Of a stretch of 64,000 nucleotides of DNA, positions 27,181-40,894 are shown piece after piece. Made by a program: the position numbers and the translations under genes. Within the stretch, counting starts at the first letter, position 1. Each line of letters starts with the position of its first letter. The notes beneath the pieces were generated by a model, which was given only the letters and a program-made list of their open reading frames with translations, had not been told where the DNA came from and did not search any database. This stretch comes from Moniliella sp. 'wahieum' (lineage: Eukaryota), in the NCBI GenBank assembly GCA_003971905.1, contig RSEE01000096.1:124001-188000 (forward strand), read 5' to 3'.

Positions 27181-27760
27181 GAAAAAGCAATGGTCATGGA
27201 AGACATCAGTTGCGTGCACAGTTGTGGGGATGGGGATGGGGATGGGGATGTGGTCCGTCCGCGTGGTGTTCCGATATACAGATGGCAGAGACCACCGCCG
27301 TGCCTGGTCTGATCTTGCGCTGGGGCCGATCGGGCCGCTGTTTCGTCGCGCCGGCTGTCGCGGCCGAGGCATCCATCGGGCCAGGGCGCAGGTGGGGTGG
27401 CGATGGGCGTAGCAACCCCAACTGGGATGGGGAAGCGGCAAAACAGGTTTAGCCGTCTGCGCAAGCGCAAGGGAGACAACCCTAGCGGGGTCGGGTGCAG
27501 GTGGGGGACCCCAGTGTGCCCCGCACCCCAGTGGGCGGCGCCAGGCGAGTGTGGCCTGGCGCAAAATGCGGTGCCCCACACTTCGGCTCTGCGGCTGTGG
27601 CCTTAGCCGGGTGTCGGGCGACTGGCGATGGGGCCGCGAGAGCCGCGACAAGGCCCGCTGGCAGAAGCACATGTCCGCAGTCGACACGGCGCCCGGTGGC
27701 ATACCCTAGCCCTTTAACCCCCATCCCGCATCCTTCCTCTCCTGCGCTGCTCCCACCACC

Positions 27761-29429
27761 ATGCCCCGCCTCGCTTCCCGCTCGACAATCAGTACGTTCT
27801 TCCTCCCTCCCTTGCTCACTGTGCGTCTAACGCCGGCTGGCACCAGAGAACCTGCTGCAGCTCACGCACAGCGTCAACTGCCCCTGCCATGGTGTGCCAC
27901 CATGCGCAGTCCCCAGTCCACCGCCAGCATGGTGCGTGCCGGACTGAAGATGGTCACGTCCCATGGCCAGACGGCGCGGACGTTTGCTGCGCCTGTGGAC
28001 CAAGCTGTGCAGCGCGAGTATGCATTTGAGATGGCTGCGTCCAACTGCCGCTTTGGGCCTGGCGTCACGCGCGAGGTGGGACTTGACCTGCAGGCAATGA
28101 AGCCCCGCAAGGTCGGCGTCTGGACCGACAAGAACCTACTCAATTTGACCGCGATGAAGCAAACCATCGAGTCGCTCGAGGCGGCCAACGTGCCGTACGA
28201 AGTGTACGACCGGGTTCGCGTCGAGCCCAATGATGCTAGCTGGGCCGACACGATTGAGTATGCTCGTAAAAACGATTTTTCTCATTGTACGCCCCCCCCC
28301 CCCTCTCCGTGCCATGCCGTTCTTCCTGCTCTCGCTCTCGCTCTTGCCCATTCTGACTGTTTGCCACGATGCGATTGCCTTCCCAGTCTTGGCTGTCGGT
28401 GGTGGCTCGACGATGGACACGTGCAGGTGGCCAATTGTTTACCTGTTACCCAGAGCAGATCTGCTGGACTTTGTCAACGCACCCATTGGTAAAGGCCTGC
28501 CCATTTCCCAGCAACTCCGTCCTCTGATTGCCATTCCCACCACGGCCGGTACGGGTTCCGAGACGACGGGTACGGCGATCTTTGACCATGCTGCGACAGG
28601 GGCCAAGACGGGGATTGCGAACCGTGCGCTGCGCCCCTACTTGGTATTATTGATCCTCTCAACACGGCCGAATGTCCTACTGAGGTGCACGTGAGCTCCG
28701 GGCTGGATGTACTCTCCACTCGCTGGAATCGTAACACTGCCTTGCCGTTTAACGAGCGGACCCCGCGCCCTTCGCACCCCTTTTACGTCCTGCGTACCAA
28801 GGCCGCAATCCAGTCTCGGACCTCTTCTCCTTTTGGGCGCTGCAGCAGACGGTCAGTACCTGCCTCGGGTCAAGGCGAACCGGTTCGACGAGGAGGCACG
28901 GATGCAGATGTGCCTTGCGGCAGGGCTGGCCGGGATCGGGTTCGGGAATGCAGGGGTAACGTTGTGCCATGCGGCGTCGTATCCGATTTCAGGGCTGAAC
29001 AAGTCGCATGGGCAGTACAAGCATCCGGGGTACATGGTGGACCCCCGATCGTGCCGCACGGCATCTCGGTCGCTCTCACGGGCCCGGCGGTATTTGAATT
29101 TTTGGCACCTAGCTCGCCCGACCGGCATAGGCAGATCGCCGAGGTGTTCGCCGAGTATGGCAGTGCGCACGACCCGGACCTGAACCGCGTCTCGGACCCG
29201 GCAGTGCTGGGTCAAATCGTGTACGACCGCATCGCGGCGTTCTTGGCCTCGTTGGACGTGCCGCGTGGACTGAGCCAGATTGGCTACACCTCCTCGGACA
29301 TTCCCGATATTGTCAAGGGCACGTTGCCGCAGCGGCGCGTGCTGGACCTCGCGCGGGCGTGCGGAGATGGCGGTGGAGCAGAGTACCGAGGCGCTGTCGG
29401 GCATCCTGGAGCGCTCCATGGCGTACTAG
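27761..29429 (+). CDS. ADHFE1: Hydroxyacid-oxoacid transhydrogenase (iron-dependent ADH family, mitochondrial)
   Basis: Introns 27792-27846 and 28287-28386 give MPRLASRSTIKNLLQLTHSVNCPCHG...EYAFEMAASNCRFGPGVTREVG...FLAVGGGSTMDT; IPTTAGTGSETTG; GIGFGNAG..LCH; VPHGISVALTGPAVF; GTLPQRRV; GILERSMAY*. Confidence 0.93.
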
Positions 29430-30199
29430 CCTGCGGGTGATATGGGACAAGCCCAGACGTAGGCAAGCGAACGGCATAGCTCCGTTGCAGATCCAAATCA
29501 AGATCCACATCCAGATCCAGATCCAGATCCACCTCCATACACATCGTCGGCGTCAACCGATGGAGGGACATGGGGAGGCAGGACCATTGATCATCGATCA
29601 ACATGTATCATCCAATCATAGACCACCGATCATATACATACCGCAGAAGCTTACCGTTAAGCTTAAATTTCAAAGCGTAGCGCCTAGTGGAGGTTCGGCT
29701 CGAGGCAGGGGGCAGCCAAGCGGCGTGCCGTGGCGATCGGCCGTGTTGGTCTGGAAGGGCAGCAGCGCAGCGCAGGGGGGGCAGGGCTCCGCAGGGGGGC
29801 GCAGGGTCGGGTGGATCGTAAGCGTGCGACCTGGTGCAGCGCATGCGGGTCCCTGCAGTAGGCAGTTGTAGAGGCGACAAGGGGTGGCATGCCCCAGGGC
29901 GGCTCTGCCTGCCAGTGGCGCCGGGGCAGCGGAGGCGCCGCGGCGCGGACAAGCACTGGCCCCGGCCGTGGCATGGCGTAAAGCACACTGCGCCGTGGCT
30001 GCTTCGCGCGCACTGCTCCACGTGCCAGGAACCCTGGTCCGACTCAGAAAGCCGCGAGCCCAAGCCAGAACCCAGAACCACACGCAGAAGCCCAGCCTGG
30101 GCCCCAACATCAGCGCATCCGCAGGGGGCAAGCCTGGGCACACTCAACCAGTCTGCTCCACCACCACCACCACCACCACCTCCTCCTCCTCCCCTGCTC

Positions 30200-33100
30200 A
30201 TGAGTCGCCAACAGCGCTACGCGCCGTCGACGACCAGTACAACACGGAGCTGCCCATGTCGGGTGCGCGCCGGCGCTCCCTCCGCCCGCTGCGCGTACGC
30301 CGCGCCGTCGCAGGCCTACTCGCCGCACAGCGTCCGGGCCGCAGCCCAGGCCGCAGTCCTATCCGCAGTCCTGGTCGTCGCGCTGCGTCGCCATCGCCGT
30401 CGCCCGTGTACGTCAGCCGGCCCACGCCCTCGCTGGCGGGTACGGCTACCAAGATGCCTCCTTCGCTGGCTACGGCGAAGGGTACGACGATGAGACTCAT
30501 ATCCCCCTCTCGGAAAAGGGCCCGCCACTGGAAAAGATGACATCGATGGAAATCAATTACCCGCCCCAGGCTCCCCGCCAGGTTTACTATGGGTACGTGG
30601 ATTGTCCTTGCTGCAACCCCCCCCCCCCCCCCGTTTGCTGCATGCTGACTGACACACTCTCTTTTTGCCCTTGTCCTTCTCTTCTCCTTCTCCTTGCCCG
30701 GATTAGTCTGCACGACGGAGGGTCGACGTTGCTCCCGGCAGGCCCTATGAGCCCGTACGGCTACCCCTCTGGTCCTGGCTCGTCGGTCGTCGGTCCTGGG
30801 GACAGTGCGTCGCAGGTCGAGTCGCAAGTGGCCTGGGCGCAACGGCAAAACCTGCCCAAGCGCGGCATGACACGTCGGGTCAAACTTACCAAGGGGCATT
30901 GGATTGTGGAGCACCGTGTGCCAACGGCGATTCGCAACTCGTTTGAGCCCAAGTGGACACAGGGAAACAAGACGACCGAGTACACTCATATGCGCTATAC
31001 TGCCGCGACGTGTGATCCGGATGATTTTACAAAGGAGAACGGATGGACGTTACGTGCGTCGGATCTGTATGGCCGCGACACAGAGATCCTAATTGCCATC
31101 ACGTACTACAATGAGGACCGGGTGCTGGTGGCGCGTACGTTGCATGGGGTCATGCTGAACATTCGGGACATTTGCAAGTCGAAATCTTCCAAGTTTTGGC
31201 GGCGGTCCGCTGAGGAAGGTCGTCCCGGCTGGCAACGGATCGTTGTCTCGCTCATCTTTGATGGTATTGACCCGTGCGACAAGGAAGTGCTGGACCTGCT
31301 GGCGACAGTGGGGGTGTACCAGGACGGAGTGATGAAACGCCAAGTCGATGGGAAAGAAACGGTCGCTCATATATTCGAGTACACGACCCAACTCTCTGTG
31401 GATCCCAAACCTTCGTTGGTCCAACCGCATGGCTCGGACGAGTCCAACTTGGTGCCTGTCCAGATGATCTTTTGCCTCAAGCAAAAAAACTCGAAAAAAA
31501 TCAACTCGCATCGCTGGCTGTTTAATGCGCTCGGGCGCCATCTCGAACCCGAAACGTGCATCTTGCTCGATGCGGGCACCAAGCCCAGTCCCAAAAGTTT
31601 GTATTACCTATGGGAAGCAATGTACAACAACCGCCACCTGGGTGGATGCTGTGGTGAGATTCACGCCATGATCAAGGGTGGGCGCAAGTTGCTCAACCCG
31701 CTCGTGGCGGCACAAAACTTTGAGTACAAGATGAGCAACATTCTTGACAAGCCGTTGGAAAGTGCATTTGGTTACGTCTCCGTCTTGCCCGGTGCGTTTA
31801 GTGCGTATCGTTTCCGCGCCATTCAGGGCCGTCCGTTGCAGCAGTACTTTCATGGCGACCATACGTTGGCCGACCGGTTGGGCAAAAAGGGGTTGCACGG
31901 TATGGGCATTTTCACGAAGAACATGTTCCTGGCTGAAGACCGGATCTTGTGCTTTGAATTGGTGTTTAAGCGCGGAGACCGTTGGACGCTCGGGTACGTA
32001 AAGAACGCCAAGGGCGAAACGGATGTGCCTGAGGGGGCTGCCGAGCTGATCAGTCAGCGGCGGCGCTGGCTCAACGGCTCGTTTGCAGCGTCGATTTACT
32101 CGTTGATCCATTTTGGAAGGTGTACCAATCGGGCCACAACATCATTCGGATTTTCTTCCTCCACGTTCAAGCGCTGTACAACTTGGTCGTCCTGATCGTC
32201 ACGTGGTTTTCGCTGGCCAACTACTGGTTGACGTTTTCCATCATCATTCAGTTTCTTCCCGACAACATTCTGCACTCGGCGAGCGAGACGCTGCTGACGG
32301 TGCTACACTGGGTCAACCTAGGGTGTGAATGGGTCTATGTCTTTTTCCTAATTCTTCAATTTGTGCTTGCGCTCGGTAATCGTCCCAAGGCCGAGACGCG
32401 GCTCTACATTCTTTCCTTTTCGTCTTTGCCGTGATGGGCATGTACCTGATTGTCGTATCGCTTTGGCTGACGGTGGACATGCGCGACCTAGCCAAGCAAA
32501 TCGATGGTGCCCAGTCGTTTTGGTCGGTAATCATGACGAATGCACAATCGACCACAGTGTTGATTGCCAGTTTGATCGCTACGTTCGGGGTGTACCTGAT
32601 TGCTTCGATCATGTACCTTGATCCATGGCACATGATCACCTCTTTCCCGCAGTACATGGCCATCGCACCGAGCTTGATCAACATTCTCAACGTCTACGCC
32701 TTTTGCAACTTGCACGATGTGAGTTGGGGCACAAAAGGGTCGACAAGGCGGATGTACTGCCGTCAGTGGATACCAAGAAGGCCACTGCGCCCGATGGGAC
32801 GGTGGAGGAGGTGGAACAAGAACAAGAGGACATTGATGCCCATTTCCGTGAGGTGGTTCAACGTGCCGTCGCGCCCGTGGTCGTGGTGCAGCATAAGGAA
32901 AAACCAACGATGGACGATAGCAATAAGACGTTCCGCACGCGCCTCGTTATCTTTGGATCTTGTGCAATGGCGCTTTGACGGTGACCATTCAGAACTTGGC
33001 TGGCCTGCACTACAACGAGACGGACAAGCAGATCAAGGCTGAAGAACAAAGAACACAAGGATACTACTTTAAGGTACGTCTCCTCTTCTCTTCTCTCCTC

Positions 33101-33280
33101 TTGTCTCCTCTTTACCTCTCCGCCTCTTATGATCCACGTTACTAACCCAACCCCTACCCTCCTTGCTCCTTTTTGCAGGCCCTGCTGTGGACGACGTTTG
33201 GTCTTTCCTTTTTCAAGTTCTGTGGGTTCTTCGTCTTTTGGTCCACCCGCTTGATCCGCATGCCGTGCCGCAAGTCATGA
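30200..33280 (+). CDS. CHS: Chitin synthase, division 1, class III-like
   Basis: [93 protein letters not shown]; introns ~30593-30705 and 33074-33178; stop TGA at 33278-33280. Confidence 0.96.
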
Positions 33281-33847
33281 TTTCAGATGCGATTGATGAT
33301 TGATGATTGGTGATTTCATCGATGGACTTACTTCCTTCCGTTCCGTTGGTTCTTCCTACCTGGTGTCATCTCGTGCCGTGTCGTGTTCTGTCGTATCTGG
33401 TCGTGTCTGGCCGTGCCGTGTGCTAAGCCATGCTATCTTTAGTCCCCGACGCATTGGAGCCCGCGTGTTGTCAAGCCACGTTGGTCACACCCGAGGCCCC
33501 TCTTCCCCTCCCTCCTCCCCCATATAATCAGCAACAAGGTCGCCTCCCGCGCTCTGTGGGATATACCCCTCCCTCCTCGCCTACGTTCCTCATTTCCTCA
33601 TTTCCTTCCTGCCCGCAACGCTCTTTCCATCTATCCTTCGCTCCTTTGTTCCACTGCCTCCCTCCGTTCCTTTATCTCTTGTCTCGTTGGCTCTTTCTTT
33701 CTCTCTTCTCTCCTCTTTGTGGCTTTTTGTCGTCCTGTGCCAGACCCCCACCGCCAAACTGCTGAGCTCGGCCCATGCGGGTGAGGGGCTGTCCACAAGC
33801 CCGACGTATTGGACGAATTGGTTTTCCTAATAAATGCAAGTGCATTG

Positions 33848-34007
33848 TGTTGACATCCGTCCTAGGACCGCGCGGACCCTGAGTCACGTGAGTCAGCTTT
33901 CATTCCTTCCGAGCTCGCACCAGTCTTCTGGACGAGTCAGTCGCAGAAGCTTCTTAGTCAAATACGACGTTCAGTGCTCACATTCTGTGGTAGTAGCGAG
34001 GCCGACA
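33848..34007 (+). repeat. 5' LTR
   Basis: TGTTGACATCC...GGCCGACA; identical to 38740-38899 except one base (TAGTCAAATAC vs TAGTCCAATAC). Confidence 0.97.
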
Positions 34008-34061
34008 GAGTTACATCCTTATCTGCTCATCCCTGAGCTGGCCAAAACTACACCCACAACC

Positions 34062-35304
34062 ATGGGCGCCAACGCTAACACCGATCTCTCGGTCAGCGAC
34101 ACCACAATGGTGAACAAGCGCGATTACTGGACACCAACCGGTCGCGATCCGCCACCGATTGGCACCGACAACGAGGAACTCATGATGCTTTGCGCCGAAG
34201 CGCACCTGTGGTTCAAGAAGACGAACGACATCGATGTCGTTAAAGAGAAGATCAACAGAGCTATACACGACAGAGCCGAGTGGCTTGGATGGAAGGACGA
34301 ACCTACGTCTATCACGACAAACTGGGTTCGACGGGCTACGAATTTTGTGGTGCAAAACATCCACCAAATGGAAACTCAACCCAACGCAACTTTGGGGGCA
34401 CCTACAGGCGCAGCCTCGCGACCCGAGTACGACCTTTACAGATCACTACGCGAGTCTCCCACCAAGAATATCAAGTGGCCTGATCTGAACAAAGACCCGT
34501 CCGCCTACAGCGCTTGGGAAGACGAATTTCTTCGCGATAACAGATGCCCACCCCCACGCAAGCGACGTCGTCCAGAATGGTCGCAGCTCCCGCTACTTCA
34601 CCGAGGACCTCGACAGACGCTTGCACAACCTTCTTAGGGAAGCCATGCCGTCAACCCTCTTCCGGACGATCCGCACCCACCACGAAATATCATGCACCCA
34701 GGACACGCTGAACATGCTGCGTCAGCGGTATGGATATACGCCTACCGCAAACAGAGGGCCTCTACTCATTCGCTACTTTTCGGCCGACCAAGGAAACCGA
34801 TCGGGTCGAGACTACCTCGACTACATGGAAGAGATCAGTGCAAGCCTGACGCGAGCGGGCATCCCACTTACGGAAGAGCAGGAACGCACTGGGATCCTAC
34901 TCGGCTTACGCGACATGAGCATTCGCCAGCGTGAAGAGCGCTCGAGTCTAGACAAGTTACGGCAGGCCGTGATGGACATACCAGCCGCCACGTATCCCGG
35001 TGGAGAAAGGAAGAGAAACGGAGGCAAGCCGGTCAACGGAGGAACGCCTTGGACTCGACCCGACAGCGGGGGACGACCCACCAGCGGGGGAAAAAACTCC
35101 AGCGGGGGCAAAGCCGGCGACGACAACCTCGCGGACACAAGACCAAGGGGCAAACCGCACAACCAACCCTGGCGCAGCGCGACGTCTAATAAACCTGTTG
35201 TCCCTCCGCGCAACCCAGGCCGAGCCAACGCTCACGTCGCTCAGAGAGCGAGCTCTCCCGAGTCTGAAGTGATTGACGTTGATGCGGGCACAGCTGACTA
35301 CTAG
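34062..35304 (+). CDS. gag: Retrotransposon Gag
   Basis: ATG at 34062; one frame change near 34537; helical capsid-like segment DYLDYMEEISASLTRAGIPLTEEQ..ILLGL; ends at TAG in frame with pol. Confidence 0.75.
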
Positions 35305-38300
35305 GAACTCGGGGGCGAAATGCGAATCATCCGGGCATTATATGACAGTGGGGCATTCCCATCCATTTGGAAAGACAAATCCGTCTTCACATCCATGACC
35401 CCTTGCGACGACGAGATAGAGGTTGCTAACGGGACACATGTAAAGGCGGAAGGACGAGGCACGGCCACAATCCGTATCCGATGCTTAGGAGGACACCAAA
35501 TGGAGATAAAACTCCCCAACAGCCTATACATGCCCCGTTTCAGCCGAAATCTCGTCAGTGTAGCACACCTGTCGAACACCGGAATCGCATCATACTTCGC
35601 CCCACACCAGAAGGGTATCTGGCTTGGTAACCCAGGATCCACCCTACGAAAAGTAACCGGCAGTGACTATCAATTCACGATCTTACACAACCGCGAACGC
35701 CACCCACACCCCGCGGCCATGGCGACCAAAACCGATCAAACCGGCCGACCCCCCTCAACCCCAAACTCCCTCGCAGCATCCCTGGCCCTGGACCACGTCT
35801 CTAAAGCCCACAAACGCTGGAACCACGCAGCCATCGACCTCCTCCCCTGGCTTACACGATCGGAACCGCAGGCCTCCGCGTCACAGCCAAGCATATCTCT
35901 CCTCGGTGTCGTTCAGAGTGGGATTGCCCAACATGCGCGTGGCACTAGCGACAGCATCGCCCATCCGAGCCGGGACCGCCTCCGATCCAAAAGACCTTTC
36001 GAGGTCCTCCACGTCGACGTAGTAGACCTCCCCCGGGTAACCGGCATGGGGCACGGATACGCCCTCGTCGCCGTTGATGACTTCACGCGGTACGTCTTCA
36101 CCACAGCGATCCCGACAAAGGGCGCTGCAACGAAGGAACTGCGGAACCTCATATTGCGGGAGCAACGCTACGGCCCGGACAGACTGCTGCGGACTTTGCG
36201 CACGGACAACGCCCCCGAATTGACAAGCGCACTGCAACCTTTTCTGGACGAGCAAGGCATCACGTCAGAACGGACAATCCCGGGGCAGAGTGCTAGCAAC
36301 GGTGTGGCTGAGCGTGCCATCCGAACCATAACGACTCGTGCAAGGCAGTTGCTCTTGGGTACAGGTCTTCCGACGTCGGACTGGTGGGAACACAGCCTCC
36401 ACGCTGCGTGCTTCACCCAAAACCAAATGCCACTCAAAACATCCGGGGAAGACAACAAATCGCGATTTGAGCGATACAAAGGCCACGCATACTCGTTACC
36501 GATGCAACCCTTTGGCCGCGTTGCATACCTCCATCTGCCCGAGTCACGCCGCGAGCACAAGCTCAGCGCGCGGGCAGAGGAAGGTATGCTGGTAGGATAC
36601 CACCATCAGCGCGGATCAAAGGGATGGCTCTTCGCCACATACCAACCATCCCTGGGTACCTTCACCTACCGCTGGTCGAAACCGTACAAATGGGGCAACG
36701 CCATCTACCCCCATCTCCACCCCGACCACTTCCCACCCGACATCTCCAAATCACCTCAAATTAAAATCGACAGTGAAAAAGACGCTAACCCTACTCCGCC
36801 AGCCGCGGCAGCACCCATGCCCCGAACCGCCGCCACACCCCAGACACCCGCTCCCACCACCACCCCCCCTCCGCGCCGCTACCCCCTCCGCCAGCGCACC
36901 ACCCGCACCTCCCTCGACCTGCACACACTCCCAATCGCTGACGACCCCACCGACACGACCTACCATGCTCGTGCTGCAGCCGCCACGCCCCACTGCGCCG
37001 CACCAGAGATCGGCATCGCCCGCCCCCTACCTGACACATCCGCCCCCCCGTTTGCCGACACAGTTCAACCTCCCGAATACGCCGCCATGACTGCTCTCAG
37101 CGCACCCATCCACCCGGACACGGTTCAGCTCACCAAGGATGGCGTACCCCTCGCTCCCAAGACGCTCAAGGGTCTCGAGACTCACCCCTCCTTTGCCATG
37201 GTCAAGCAGGCTATGGCCGACGAGGTGGCCACACTCGCGCGATACGGCACCTACGAGGCTACGTACCCACCACCGGGTGCACAAATCCTCATAGGACTAT
37301 GGCGCATCACCACAAAGACGGACGCCGAGGGCCGGTTCCTGCGCCACCGCGCGCGCTTTGTCGCGGGCGGACACCAACAATCGGCCGAGACTTGGGGCCA
37401 GACGTTCGCACCATCGGTGCGCACACCTGCCATCCTGACCCTCGTCGTGCTGGCCGAGAAGTATAAGTTTGGCCTCTTCTCGGCGGACGTCAATGCAGCG
37501 TACCTGAACGCCCCCCTCGAAGAAGCAGTCTACATCCGCCCACCCCCCTACTTCCCCGAAGCGGGTGGTCGCGTGTGGCGTCTCAAGAAGAGTCTATACG
37601 GGCTACATCAGAGCGGAGCAAACTGGGCACGATACATCCGGAACCTGCTGCGTGACAAGCTCGGCTTCACGCAAAGCTTGACCGAGCCCTGCTTGTTCGT
37701 GCGCGCTGCACCACCGGGTGAGCAGATCCTCCTGGCGGTCCACACCGACGATCTGCTCCTCGCATGCAAGTCACACCAAAAGTACGAGGAGTTTATGGCC
37801 GAGATAAACACACACATTGATGTTCGTGGTAACGGTCCCCTTCACTACCACCTGGGATGCCAATACGATCGGATCGGTGGGGAGCTGTACCTGAGCCAAC
37901 CAAAGTTCATCGAGGAAGTGGTGGCAAAGCACCACATCAAAGCCCCGTGGATCCGGACTCTCCCACATCCCGTACGGATGATACCGCCCCGTGCCGACCC
38001 TGAACCCCCATCCCTCCCAGCCTTGCGCAAGGCATATCAGGGGAAGATCGGATCGGGACTGTGGGCTGCACGAATGGGCCGGCCTGACTCCCTCTTCGCT
38101 ATCACGGCCCTCAGCAGAGCCGCTGCCGACCCATCGCAGCAGCATCATCAAGCAGTCGATGACTTCCTTCGCTACCTGTACCATACTCGAGGAAAGGGCC
38201 TGAGGTTGACCCCAACATCAGATGCACCGGCCATTGCGCTGTATACAGATTCCGACTTGGCGGGAGATCCCATCCAGGCACGCTCCACATCTGGATGCCT

Positions 38301-38745
38301 ACTGATGGTGTACGGTGTGCCGGTGTCGTGGCGATCCATTCTTCAGCCGAAGAGCGTTACCAGTACCGCCGCCGCCGAATATACGGCAGGATATGATGGA
38401 CTGGTTGACGCCAACTATGTCAAGAACATCATGATCGAGCTTGGGGCCATCGGCGAGGGTACACCCATTCATTGGTATTGCGACAATAAGTCTGTCGTCG
38501 ATCTCGCCCACAAATTTGGCAGCACCGGCAAGCTCCGAGAGCTGAAGATCCGGTACCACAATGTACGGCAACACGTGGACTCGGGCGAGGCCATACTTGT
38601 ACACATCCCCGGCGAAAGGAACCCAGCGGACGTCCTCACCAAGCCTCTCGGCCGTCCCGCCCTGACAAGCCATCTTGCTCAACTCCGCGTCGAGGAGATG
38701 GATCCAGTCCACATGACTGGGCCCTCCGGTCAGCGGGGGTGTTGA
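35305..38745 (+). CDS. pol: Retrotransposon Pol (protease, integrase, reverse transcriptase, RNase H)
   Basis: YDSGA protease; integrase HVDVVD/VDDFTR/RTDNAPE/SNGVAER; RT DVNAAYLNA, LKKSLYGLHQSG, HTDD; RNase H YTDSDLAGD, CDNKS, NPADVLTKPL; the ORF ends inside the 3' LTR. Confidence 0.97.
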   Translation, partial: ELGGEMRIIRALYDSGAFPSIWKDKSVFTSMTPCDDEIEVANGTHVKAEGRGTATIRIRCLGGHQMEIKLPNSLYMPRFSRNLVSVAHLSNTGIASYFAPHQKGIWLGNPGSTLRKVTGSDYQFTILHNRERHPHPAAMATKTDQTGRPPSTPNSLAASLALDHVSKAHKRWNHAAIDLLPWLTRSEPQASASQPSISLLGVVQSGIAQHARGTSDSIAHPSRDRLRSKRPFEVLHVDVVDLPRVTGMGHGYALVAVDDFTRYVFTTAIPTKGAATKELRNLILREQRYGPDRLLRTLRTDNAPELTSALQPFLDEQGITSERTIPGQSASNGVAERAIRTITTRARQLLLGTGLPTSDWWEHSLHAACFTQNQMPLKTSGEDNKSRFERYKGHAYSLPMQPFGRVAYLHLPESRREHKLSARAEEGMLVGYHHQRGSKGWLFATYQPSLGTFTYRWSKPYKWGNAIYPHLHPDHFPPDISKSPQIKIDSEKDANPTPPAAAAPMPRTAATPQTPAPTTTPPPRRYPLRQRTTRTSLDLHTLPIADDPTDTTYHARAAAATPHCAAPEIGIARPLPDTSAPPFADTVQPPEYAAMTALSAPIHPDTVQLTKDGVPLAPKTLKGLETHPSFAMVKQAMADEVATLARYGTYEATYPPPGAQILIGLWRITTKTDAEGRFLRHRARFVAGGHQQSAETWGQTFAPSVRTPAILTLVVLAEKYKFGLFSADVNAAYLNAPLEEAVYIRPPPYFPEAGGRVWRLKKSLYGLHQSGANWARYIRNLLRDKLGFTQSLTEPCLFVRAAPPGEQILLAVHTDDLLLACKSHQKYEEFMAEINTHIDVRGNGPLHYHLGCQYDRIGGELYLSQPKFIEEVVAKHHIKAPWIRTLPHPVRMIPPRADPEPPSLPALRKAYQGKIGSGLWAARMGRPDSLFAITALSRAAADPSQQHHQAVDDFLRYLYHTRGKGLRLTPTSDAPAIALYTDSDLAGDPIQARSTSGCLLMVYGVPVSWRSILQPKSVTSTAAAEYTAGYDGLVDANYVKNIMIELGAIGEGTPIHWYCDNKSVVDLAHKFGSTGKLRELKIRYHNVRQHVDSGEAILVHIPGERNPADVLTKPLGRPALTSHLAQLRVEEMDPVHMTGPSGQRGC

Positions 38746-38899
38746 CATCCGTCCTAGGACCGCGCGGACCCTGAGTCACGTGAGTCAGCTTTCATTCCTT
38801 CCGAGCTCGCACCAGTCTTCTGGACGAGTCAGTCGCAGAAGCTTCTTAGTCCAATACGACGTTCAGTGCTCACATTCTGTGGTAGTAGCGAGGCCGACA
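38740..38899 (+). repeat. 3' LTR
   Basis: Direct repeat of 33848-34007, followed by TSD CATTG. Confidence 0.97.
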
Positions 38900-40894
38900 C
38901 ATTGGTACTAAAAGTCTCTCCGCTGACCCAGCTAATCTCCGTGAGGACTGCGTCTACGGCACAGGTGGACAGAGCCAGGTGGAAGTGGCAACAGGTGGCA
39001 ACTTGACATGTACCCTGCAACCGTTCTGTACTCTACAGCTTGGGGAGGTGGGACGGCGCTGGCGGCCCAGCGCGGTGTGGAGGGAAATATGCAACCAGTT
39101 CGTGTCGAGTGAGCGAAGTACTGAGAGAGGTCGGGTGGGTGTGGTGTGCGACGGCAGGACGGGTGGCTCGTGCGCTTGGATTTGGCCACCGGACGTGGGT
39201 TGGGAGTGTGGTTGTGGGTCCAGATGCGAGCGAGGGGAGCGCAAGATGGGGCGAGTCGAGTGGAGAGTCTAGTCTAGTCAAGGGCCGAGGGAAGAGGGAG
39301 GGGTGAGACAGGCGAGGCCGATGGCCGCCGATGCTCTTTTTTCGATGGGCGATGTGTGCCGCAGAGGGTAAGTGTGGGCCAGGGGTTATGCCCTGTCCTC
39401 TTGTGCTTGTACATACCGCCTCACGCGCTTCAACCCGCGGCGCGGGGCCAGTGCGCCGGCGCCTGCTCGGGCCCAGTCCCCGTCCCCGGCACCGCAGCCC
39501 GCACGAGACTGCACCCTCGACGACGCCGGCAGCGGCCCACCCATCACACACGCCCGATCTGCCAGATCGCAGGTGGCGGTCCCCGCACCAGCGCAGCCAC
39601 CCGCCCACACTGCCCCGGCACCGGCACTTGCCTGGAGCGCAGCCGGCCAGTGGCCTCTCCCTGGGCGGGGGGGAAGGGTCCCCGGCGCTGGCGCCATGCC
39701 ACCGTCCGCCAAATGCGACGCGCTGCTGCGACCAGGTGACACATGTGAACCAGGTGACATGGCACGCGTGACGCATGATGGCGCAGATGCCTGGATGCCG
39801 CACCGGCAAGTGCCCCCGCACACTGCTGCTGCGCGACCCGGCGAGCAGCTGCGATGGCCGCATGGGGGCAGTGCCAGGGCCGCAGTGCTCAGCTCAAGCG
39901 CTTGGTTTCCGCTTTGGGGCAGGCGTGACGCGTGACGCGTGAGCTCTGAGATCGGACAGGGAAAGGCGACAGTGAGTAGTGGTAGTGGGTAGGGTAGTGT
40001 AGTGACTAGTGATAGTGACTAGTGACTAGTGAGAATGCGCAGCGACCGGTGACCGGCGAGGCTCACGCCGCGTGCTTGCTTGCGTTGACGCCACCGCCTT
40101 CGTCGGCCGCCACACCTCCCCACCCGTGCCTTGGTTGCTGTCTGCGCCGCCTGCCTCTGCCGCGCCGCCACCTCCGCCCCGTCCCGCCCTCCTCTGTGGG
40201 CCCCTGGCTGCGTCCCTGCGCACCCACTCCTCCCCTCCCCGCGCGTGACCAGGGAACGTGCTGAACGTTGAACTGGTGCCTCGCGACTAGTCACTACACC
40301 GCCCGCCCCGCGCGCCCCCCGCCACCGCCGCGTCGCCCTTCCGCCGCCGCTGTGCCACCGCGTCCGTCAGCTCTTCCTGACATCTAAGGGGATTCCCTCC
40401 CCCCTTCTCCTCCGTCTCCTCTGCCTCTGCCTCTGCCTCTTCCGTTCCCCCCTCCACCTCCCCCGCCGTCCGATTCGCGTTCTCCGACCCGCCGTCTCGA
40501 ACGCCCGCCCATACTCCCATAGGGCTCTCTTTGTGCCATCCGTACATGGCTCTCTGATCGTCCGCATCCTACACCTTTGTTGACCTTCCGTATGTACTTC
40601 ATTCCCTCCCCCTGCTAGCAGTGGACTGACCGTCGTACTCTTGCGTGCCGCTCTCAACAGGATACGTCAAGGTCTTTCTTTCTGGTGACCACTGCGTTTC
40701 GCCCCCGTCCTCTCCTCAGCGTCTGTATTCTGCTCGCTCATATTGCTCAGAGCCAGCATCTCTTGTTACGCTGCTTGCTACCGACTGATCTTGCGACTTG
40801 GTTTTTCATTGGCGTCTGATACCGCTCCGTCTCGATGTTTGTACCATTTCAACCGTCCCCGCTCCCCCCACTCCCCCTTTTCTGTCTCCTCACC

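Follow-up and report, generated by a model that had tools for sequence, protein, structure and literature searches.

How the ratio of Gag to Pol is controlled in LTR elements is a classic recoding question. In Moloney MLV, the UAG stop, in frame and with G as the next base, interrupts the sequence coding for the protease, whose N-terminus is encoded by the end of gag. As set out in the parts of PMC2194720 that deal with this virus, an 8-nt spacer and a pseudoknot are needed there for about 5% readthrough; MLV is a retrovirus, with a domain order different from that of copia elements. Among copia elements an in-frame stop is a rarity, and the studied case is Tca2 (pCal) of Candida albicans, a fungal Ty1/copia element in which gag and pol share one frame with one stop between them (PMC2194720, PMC4139406, in the sections on this element). 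The same sections of PMC2194720 describe a UGA followed by an 8-nt spacer rich in purines and by a potential pseudoknot, and report that 300 nt around the stop gave no readthrough in a reporter, yet Pol was still produced from the gag-pol RNA; local sequence alone fails to explain the bypass, whose mechanism is presented as still unresolved.

In-frame gag-pol stops are also found in the fungal LTR elements Tj1, Tosmo1-3 and Tcry1 of fission yeasts, which belong to the gypsy superfamily and share a conserved GAA-TGA-CT corresponding to known UGA readthrough contexts. The parts of PMC10085805 devoted to them describe no pseudoknot requirement, and the stop of Tj1 is reported there to be essential for transposition. 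Finally, single-ORF copia elements (Drosophila copia, Tca5, fungal GalEa and most plant copia) have the superfamily, the domain order, the short TG..CA LTRs and the 5-bp target duplication in common with the element described below (PMC5445492 and PMC4139406, in their relevant excerpts); the ORF of Tca5 is uninterrupted (PMC4139406, same excerpt). They have no gag/protease stop, and Gag excess is obtained by splicing or other means, according to the pertinent part of PMC2194720.

The window analyzed here is a stretch of 64,000 nucleotides from Moniliella sp. 'wahieum' (contig RSEE01000096.1, positions 124,001 to 188,000, assembly GCA_003971905.1). Positions 33848-38899 of this window are occupied by a genuine and recently inserted Ty1/copia element of 5,052 bp, whose anatomy, as directly observed unless qualified, is the following:

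33843..33847, + strand: target-site duplication, left copy (CATTG, the same 5 bases as at 38900-38904)
33848..34007, + strand: 5' LTR, 160 bp, TGTTGACA...GGCCGACA, direct repeat with 38740-38899
34062..34550, + strand: gag, first part (ORF in the frame of ATG 34062, with codon-usage signal)
34515..34555, + strand: zone of a one-base frame change in gag, adjoining a C5 run (codon-usage log-likelihood)
34530..35301, + strand: gag, second part (open frame 34489-35301)
35255..35315, + strand: hairpin with the TAG in its 3' arm (CTCCCGAGT/ACTCGGGGG pairing; folding, not significant)
35302..35304, + strand: in-frame TAG, candidate gag terminator and readthrough site (read directly in the sequence)
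35305..35319, + strand: GAA CTC GGG GGC GAA, five sense codons from the TAG to the first ATG of the pol frame
35320..35322, + strand: first ATG after the TAG, 8 codons upstream of the catalytic Asp
35269..35631, + strand: retropepsin-type protease, at its apparent extent (Pfam Pol_BBD, AlphaFold, Foldseek, homologs)
35989..36288, + strand: integrase core (Pfam rve, 1.2e-09)
37270..37941, + strand: copia-type reverse transcriptase (Pfam RVT_2, 1.1e-36)
35305..38745, + strand: pol frame (PR-INT-RT-RNase H region), whose final TGA lies 6 bases into the 3' LTR
38732..38739, + strand: putative polypurine tract AGCGGGGG, within the pol frame and next to the 3' LTR (presumed function)
38740..38899, + strand: 3' LTR, direct repeat with the 5' LTR
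38900..38904, + strand: target-site duplication, right copy (CATTG)

The LTRs have ends of the TG..CA type (TGTT..GACA) and are identical at 159 of 160 positions, the sole mismatch being A/C at 33960/38852. The sequence-only reading had called the element very young; this dating depends on a single mismatch over 160 bp and leaves room for about 15 interior substitutions and, by our own arithmetic, about 0.5 expected nonsense changes. Pfam domains follow the copia order (Pol_BBD, rve, SH3_retrovirus, RVT_2) in a pol frame of 1,141 codons that contains neither a stop nor a frameshift, while the RNase H part, which has no Pfam match, was assigned from alignment to copia polyproteins and an ADVLTKP motif. 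The sequence directly after the 5' LTR, GAGTTACATCC..., does not have TGG as its first bases, and the window contains no tRNA gene with which a primer-binding site could be compared.

No second copy of the element was found within the window by blastn and tblastn. A protein search at E<=0.001 returned 58,049 matches, and among the best 150 only the protein P0003 exceeded 34% identity (62%); it is 61-63% identical to pol over the part covered, and begins in integrase. For the gag and junction parts, word-index searches of proteins of 766-2438, 135-431 and 30-765 aa returned no match, and no relative was detected in the prokaryote genome collection scanned. The literature, searched in general terms rather than by sequence or host, returned no description of this copia element; gag-pol recoding in LTR elements has reportedly been surveyed by Gao et al. 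2003 (RNA 9:1422).

The junction reads GAC (35296-35298), TAC (35299-35301) and TAG (35302-35304), followed by GAA CTC GGG GGC GAA ATG with the ATG at 35320-35322, exactly as the sequence-only reading had it. Its placing of the protease Asp also agrees with the letters: the Asp codon of the YDSGA motif (GAC, 35344-35346) is the 14th after the TAG. The frame is open over 34489-35301 and, past the TAG, resumes at 35305 and runs as far as the TGA at 38743-38745, so that no stop other than the TAG interrupts it between 34489 and 38742, a span of about 4.25 kb. The G described at +4 is present at 35305, and a purine at this position usually favours termination.

Our preferred explanation, to which we assign a probability of roughly 45% on the basis of a single copy, is that the TAG is the element's own gag terminator and allows low-level readthrough into a Gag-Pol fusion. 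Several observations speak for it: the lone stop falls directly after the Gly/Arg/Lys-rich tail of Gag, the pol frame and the target duplication are intact and the LTRs nearly identical, and an in-frame stop between gag and pol is an established strategy, as the accounts of Tca2 and Tj1/Tosmo cited above indicate. Under this explanation, most ribosomes would halt at the TAG and release Gag, whereas in a small fraction UAG would be decoded by a normal near-cognate tRNA and the same frame continued, yielding a Gag-PR-INT-RT-RNaseH fusion that the protease would then cut. The stop is probably a known way to make little enzyme and much capsid, although from one copy it is indistinguishable from a chance mutation.

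Such a mutation is the core of the first alternative, a rather doubtful one, in which the family has a continuous gag-pol frame and the TAG is a private nonsense substitution (less likely a base-call error) in a dead or dying copy. Among the distant homologs examined, gag and protease lie in one polypeptide in 37 of 43, so that a single ORF is the rule across the copia superfamily, and the homolog column aligned to the TAG is variable and occupied by ordinary residues. These data favour a private mutation and count against a terminator, as do the frame change inside gag of the same copy and the failure of folding, a pseudoknot scan and Rfam to reveal a readthrough signal; the single copy also weighs against the terminator. 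Moreover, TAG is one step away from CAG, GAG, AAG, TCG, TGG, TTG, TAC and TAT, common codons in this frame of 67% GC3. On the other hand, none of these single-step routes is a CpG transition, the 1,141 codons of pol hold no other stop, and the demonstrable assembly errors are frameshifts and not stops. This last point had been made by the sequence-only reading, and it holds for two host genes, which carry frameshifts but no stops. The position of the TAG is also improbable for a random change. Single-base substitutions across the 1,555 codons of the element create a stop in 3.55% of cases, and only 1.8% of the stop-creating ones land -40 to -5 codons from the Asp (3.6% for -60 to -1), making a chance nonsense change so near the gag/protease boundary unlikely, at about 2-4%.

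The sequence-only reading had likened the junction to that of MLV and had pointed to short pairings nearby. The pairings do exist (CTCCCGAGT at 35255-35263 with ACTCGGGGG at 35307-35315; AATGC at 35319-35323 with GCATT at 35335-35339 and 35353-35357), and local RNA structure beyond background is absent. The hairpin region 35250-35320 has an MFE of -21.6 kcal/mol, which is not significant (z -0.83, 44 of 200 shuffles as good), and folds downstream of the TAG were no better than their shuffles (z +0.46 and +0.23). The segment 35310-35370, taken from 8 nt after the TAG, is in fact unusually unstructured, with less structure than 199/200 of its shuffles (z +2.12). Our own simple stacking scan, which is not a full pseudoknot folder, gave a best H-type pseudoknot of -18.3 kcal/mol beginning 3 nt after the TAG; when other in-frame positions of the element were scanned as controls, 525 of 1,327 did as well or better. 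A search of Rfam returned 0 matches at E<=1. An MLV-like pseudoknot was rejected on the strength of the shuffles, the control positions and Rfam. The spacer after the TAG, GAACUCGG, has 5 purines in 8 and is not purine-rich. GAACUC, the hexamer directly 3' of the stop, does not fit CAR-YYA and matches none of the known readthrough motifs, including UGA-C and UGA-CUA, as these are quoted in the relevant parts of PMC2194720 and PMC10085805. Of the signals of MLV, only the G at +4 is shared, and an MLV-like mechanism for this TAG is not supported.

As the MLV-type spacer and pseudoknot are absent, readthrough of what we infer to be an ancestral stop would take place either at a low level or with the help of signals not recognisable here. 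This explanation can accommodate the absence of a local signal, since the 300 nt of Tca2 also failed in the reporter while Pol was made from its gag-pol RNA. The element can be regarded as a plausible, though unproven, Tca2-like case. The two differ in several respects: the present element has UAG as its stop and GAACUCGG as its spacer, and no pseudoknot rises above background; apart from common membership of the copia superfamily, no sequence relationship between them can be detected; and Tca2 is active with many copies, as against one copy seen within the window. With regard to the fission yeast elements, their conserved UGA context is replaced here by TAC-TAG-GA, which corresponds to no known motif.

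A different line of evidence comes from the protease, which gives a Pfam Pol_BBD match (2.1e-11) and has a confident core at 35314-35631, with the catalytic Asp at 35344-35346. Its AlphaFold model has a mean pLDDT of 74, with core blocks above 90, and the best Foldseek matches of this model are the XMRV and HIV-1 proteases. Upstream of the TAG, a stretch encoding VIDVDA (35269-35286, positions -25 to -20 from the Asp) is modelled by AlphaFold as a strand, at low confidence. Of the distant copia homologs, 34 of 41 have a hydrophobic 6-mer at -28 to -10 from the Asp, compared with 11/39, 15/38 and 13/38 in control windows further upstream. The protease therefore seems, from the homologs and the model, to extend into sequence encoded before the stop. 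In this the junction would resemble that of MLV, with the TAG likewise inside the protease coding region and the XMRV protease among the best structural matches.

These results bear on a further possibility, that the TAG is a genuine terminator and Pol is made separately from ATG 35320, by termination-reinitiation or from a sub-genomic transcript with an internal promoter. The AUG lies 15 nt (5 codons) past the UAG with a purine at -3, the surrounding segment 35310-35370 is unstructured, as expected round a start site, and the confidently modelled core of the protease starts close to this Met. Nevertheless, the possibility is unlikely, for a protein begun there would reach the Asp after only 8 residues and would be without the upstream VIDVDA strand, of a kind that most homologs keep. 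The 140 nt before the stop (35160-35301) contain no TGGGA, which is TURBS motif 1, and the upstream hairpin is not significant; free Pol would also need another route into the particle. A weak internal promoter is described in the Tca2 junction, but it is judged minor in the same part of PMC2194720. A Gag-Pol fusion is favoured over a separate start because the protease apparently depends on residues from the gag side of the TAG.

Expression of this type, by termination-reinitiation, is known from non-LTR elements and from RNA viruses of fungi, and we know of none in LTR retrotransposons. It is quite improbable, though conceivable, that a copia lineage of GC-rich fungi uses a bare UAG with an AUG 15 nt on in an unstructured stretch, and obtains Pol by termination-reinitiation or by context-independent bypass.

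The stop could also be removed from the transcript. Splicing-out of the stop was raised for Tca2 (PMC2194720, in its Discussion), and of 14 GT..AG candidates here that include the TAG and leave the frame unchanged the best is a 36-nt in-frame mini-intron, with GTGATT at 35269, a branch-like CTGAC at 35293 and the TAG at 35302-35304 as acceptor, which would be spliced from some transcripts to give a fused gag-pol mRNA. This has very little to commend it: its 36 nt compare with at most about 126 and 100 nt for two host introns in the window, as estimated from Pfam profile continuity, its donor lacks G at +5, and its splicing would also remove the VIDVDA strand. As a GTRNGT donor is found in 0 of the 14, a stop-removing intron was set aside for want of a candidate with a canonical donor. 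Regarding a suppressor tRNA or a reassigned TAG, no tRNA gene is present within the window, to which this search was confined.

If the TAG is indeed a gag terminator with readthrough, the bypass question could be taken up independently in a second, unrelated lineage of fungal copia elements whose UAG is bare and lacks a local signal. Annotation would be affected as well, as such copies would otherwise be scored dead; in PMC3248453, stop codons are treated only as decay. Should the TAG be only a mutation, the locus is merely one recently inserted, slightly damaged copia copy.

As for gag itself, it is not one open frame. Its start, ATG 34062, is in another frame, which the codon-usage signal backs up to about 34510, and the second part comprises a helical region followed by the Gly/Arg/Lys-rich tail with last residues ...DAGTADY. 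No CCHC knuckle is present in gag, the basic Gly-rich tail standing in its place, and a Pfam search gave no match even at E<=10; look-alikes in Atlas are TYA and Retrotran_gag_2, at scores of only 0.87-0.88, which can be taken as a lead. The codon-usage log-likelihood changes frame at 34515-34555 and not at the frame-0 stop at 34635. A programmed +1 frameshift at that stop was ruled out, because the change takes place about 100 nt earlier (34515-34550). Since the frameshift is present in gag as assembled, the copy may be decaying. The site of the frame-0 stop carries an antizyme-like TCT TAG G (34632-34638), and next to this, in the other frame, is a Ty1-like CTT AGG G. The frameshift in gag is the same kind of indel as those seen in the host genes.

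The in-frame TAG at 35302-35304 that may terminate gag lies in a complete retrotransposon; this element and three host genes of the window are placed as follows:

33848-38899, + strand: complete Ty1/copia LTR retrotransposon, from its LTRs, CATTG flanks and Pfam domains
30537-32195: catalytic part of a chitin synthase gene, just upstream of the element
27710-29440: iron-type alcohol dehydrogenase gene, interrupted near 28281-28379 by an intron of no more than about 100 nt
1130-2161: legume-like lectin (ERGIC-53/Emp47-type) gene, split at 1679-1804 by an intron of no more than about 126 nt, which helps to gauge how long introns are in this genome

Both LTRs are 160 bp long, start with TGTTGACA, finish with GGCCGACA and differ at a single position (A at 33960 versus C at 38852). 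The five bases CATTG border the element on both sides, and its Pfam domains follow the copia order: Pol_BBD, which is the copia protease barrel, rve, SH3_retrovirus and RVT_2. The window is fungal, since the chitin synthase gene lies just 5' of the element and the G+C content is about 60%; within its 64 kb, blastn and tblastn found no second copy of the element. The codons GAC TAC TAG finish at 35304 and are followed in the same frame by GAA CTC GGG GGC GAA ATG, the first ATG after the stop being at 35320, and the 14th codon past the TAG encodes the Asp of YDSGA. These details had led a sequence-only reading to propose UAG readthrough between gag and pol, and all of them were confirmed: the TAG frame is open at 34489-35301 and again from 35305 to a TGA at 38743-38745, with no frame break across the 3.4 kb of pol. 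Programmed readthrough of a genuine stop is our tentative reading, with a probability of roughly 0.45. The arrangement works like that of Tca2, the Candida albicans Ty1/copia element with an in-frame UGA, whereas the likeness to the readthrough retrovirus MLV extends no further than gene layout. If genuine, the stop would mark a copia lineage of fungi in which the UAG stands in frame without any recognisable signal.

The alternative that the TAG is a private nonsense mutation or an error, a chance hit in a young copia copy that is otherwise unremarkable, was weighed against the position of the stop. Among the possible single-base changes in the 1,555 codons of the element, 3.55% yield a stop, and one LTR mismatch per 160 bp allows roughly 15 interior substitutions, or about 0.5 nonsense changes, so that one random stop somewhere in the element would not be surprising. 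A single random stop exactly at the gag/protease boundary would be surprising, as only 1.8% of stop-creating changes fall 40 to 5 codons ahead of the catalytic Asp, and 3.6% fall 60 to 1 codons ahead of it. The case for a private mutation comes from 43 distant homologs among the 150 matches listed, picked for a protease region matching the junction piece (proteins above 1,900 aa, three in all, were excluded). In 37 of the 43, the polypeptide that contains the Asp extends at least 150 residues upstream of it, and one ORF is therefore the norm; the homolog column facing the stop is variable. Taken with the improbable position, we regard a private mutation or error as unlikely and the stop as probably a genuine feature of the element. 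An exhaustive protein search gave, among the matches listed, one close relative (P0003, 62% identity), which starts inside integrase; the gag and junction parts had no match in protein searches, and the prokaryote genome collection gave no match.

The sequence-only reading had also held that assembly errors here are indels, and the host genes fit this. In the chitin synthase gene there are three frame changes in a stretch of about 650 bp (near 32115, 32410 and 32740), each directly spanned by conserved motifs that leave no space for an intron; these breaks point to assembly indel errors or a very recent pseudogene. The alcohol dehydrogenase gene has one frame change, beside a C5 run (GACCCCCGA) near 29042-29046, where ...KHPGYMVDP in one frame resumes as PIVPHGISV in another. 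Neither gene contains an in-frame stop. This agreement is not proof, since these genes may truly be pseudogenes and pol itself is unbroken. The delimited introns bear on a further alternative, in which a 36-nt in-frame mini-intron (35269-35304) would remove the stop by splicing; it was the best of 14 candidates, but its donor is poor and its length falls far below that of the two delimited host introns, which leaves it highly improbable.

The sequence-only reading did not mention that gag fails to run in a single frame: its ATG at 34062 is in another frame, which later shifts into that of the TAG. Codon-usage scoring, with the pol frame as training set, places a one-base change of frame at about 34515-34555, adjoining a C5 run (CCCACCCCCAC) and inside an apparently continuous Gag domain. 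The codon-usage switch occurs at 34515-34550 and not at the first-frame stop, 34635; the change is therefore an indel-type break rather than a recoding site, and reflects either an indel made in assembly or true damage to this copy. The sequence at that stop, TCT TAG G (34632-34639), resembles an antizyme-type +1 site, and a Ty1-like CTT AGG G overlies it in the other frame. This was judged a coincidence because the coding signal had switched frames some 100 nt before the stop. No CCHC zinc knuckle was found in the Gag tail (34900-35240), where the 43 aligned homologs have the consensus CxxCxKxGHxxxxC; the tail is instead Gly/Arg/Lys-rich (GGERKRNGGKPVNGG...SGGKNSSGGKAG), a composition that may take over nucleic-acid binding.

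As regards a stimulatory signal, folding was no better than in shuffles for the 99 nt from the stop (z +0.46) or the 221 nt around it (z +0.23). The stretch 35310-35370, where a stimulatory structure would be expected and which holds the ATG at 35320, folded worse than 199 of 200 dinucleotide shuffles (z +2.12), a single test that may reflect chance. In the hairpin formed by the CTCCCGAGT/ACTCGGGGG pairing noticed earlier, the 3' arm contains the stop; this hairpin lacks significance, 44 of 200 shuffles folding at least as well (z -0.83). A simple in-house scan for H-type pseudoknots, scored by stacking energy, ranked best a CUCGGG/UCCGGG plus AAUGC/GCAUU structure (-18.3 kcal/mol) beginning 3 nt past the stop; it was rejected as a signal, since an equal or better one follows 525 of 1,327 in-frame codons elsewhere in the element. 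Rfam at E<=1 gave no match across 33000-40000. The proposed MLV-like signal was thus not borne out: the spacer and pseudoknot that define it are missing and downstream folds are at background, so the element lies outside the MLV-type signal class. The 3' hexamer GAACUC matches neither the CAR-YYA nor the UGA-C/CUA contexts as given in PMC2194720 and PMC10085805. Such an absence would still be compatible with readthrough, because the stop region of Tca2 is also weak in a reporter: according to PMC2194720, a 300-nt segment spanning the stop supported only 0.3% readthrough in a yeast reporter, and Pol is nonetheless made from the gag-pol RNA.

The protease was modelled from the residues of 35161-35670, with X at the stop and the 43-homolog alignment. 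The model averaged a pLDDT of 74 and exceeded 90 in blocks throughout the core, and the structures that it matched best were the proteases of XMRV and HIV-1 (TM 0.37-0.41 on the query, with a best E of 7e-4 and a probability of 1.0). The confident core starts at about the Met of 35320, and a low-confidence strand appears upstream of the stop, at IDVDA. The homologs lend support to such a strand: a hydrophobic 6-mer occurs 28 to 10 residues ahead of the Asp in 34 of 41, against 11/39, 15/38 and 13/38 in control windows further upstream. The matching stretch of the element, VIDVDA, is encoded 5' of the TAG. Model and alignment favour a Gag-protease fusion, likewise found in MLV, because in a Pol begun at ATG 35320 only 8 residues would precede the Asp and the strand would be missing. 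This argues against the separate initiation that had been offered as an alternative, in which reinitiation or internal initiation at AUG 35320 yields a separate Pol. That AUG is close to the stop and lies in open RNA, as is expected around a start site, but a tethering motif is absent and the Pol would lack its upstream strand, and we consider this route quite improbable. The strand fits readthrough and an ancestral single ORF alike.

At the 5' end of the element, no TGG-type tRNA primer-binding site was found 3' of the LTR (34008-34030); the first 11 bases after this LTR (GAGTTACATCC) match the LTR's own first 11 (TGTTGACATCC) at 9 of 11 positions. At the other end (38728-38745), the pol frame crosses the putative polypurine tract and stops at a TGA six bases into the 3' LTR (TGT TGA). 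This arrangement, in which coding sequence, tract and LTR end overlap, seems to have been kept within the lineage, because the C-terminal residues SGQRGC are common to the pol of the element and to P0003.
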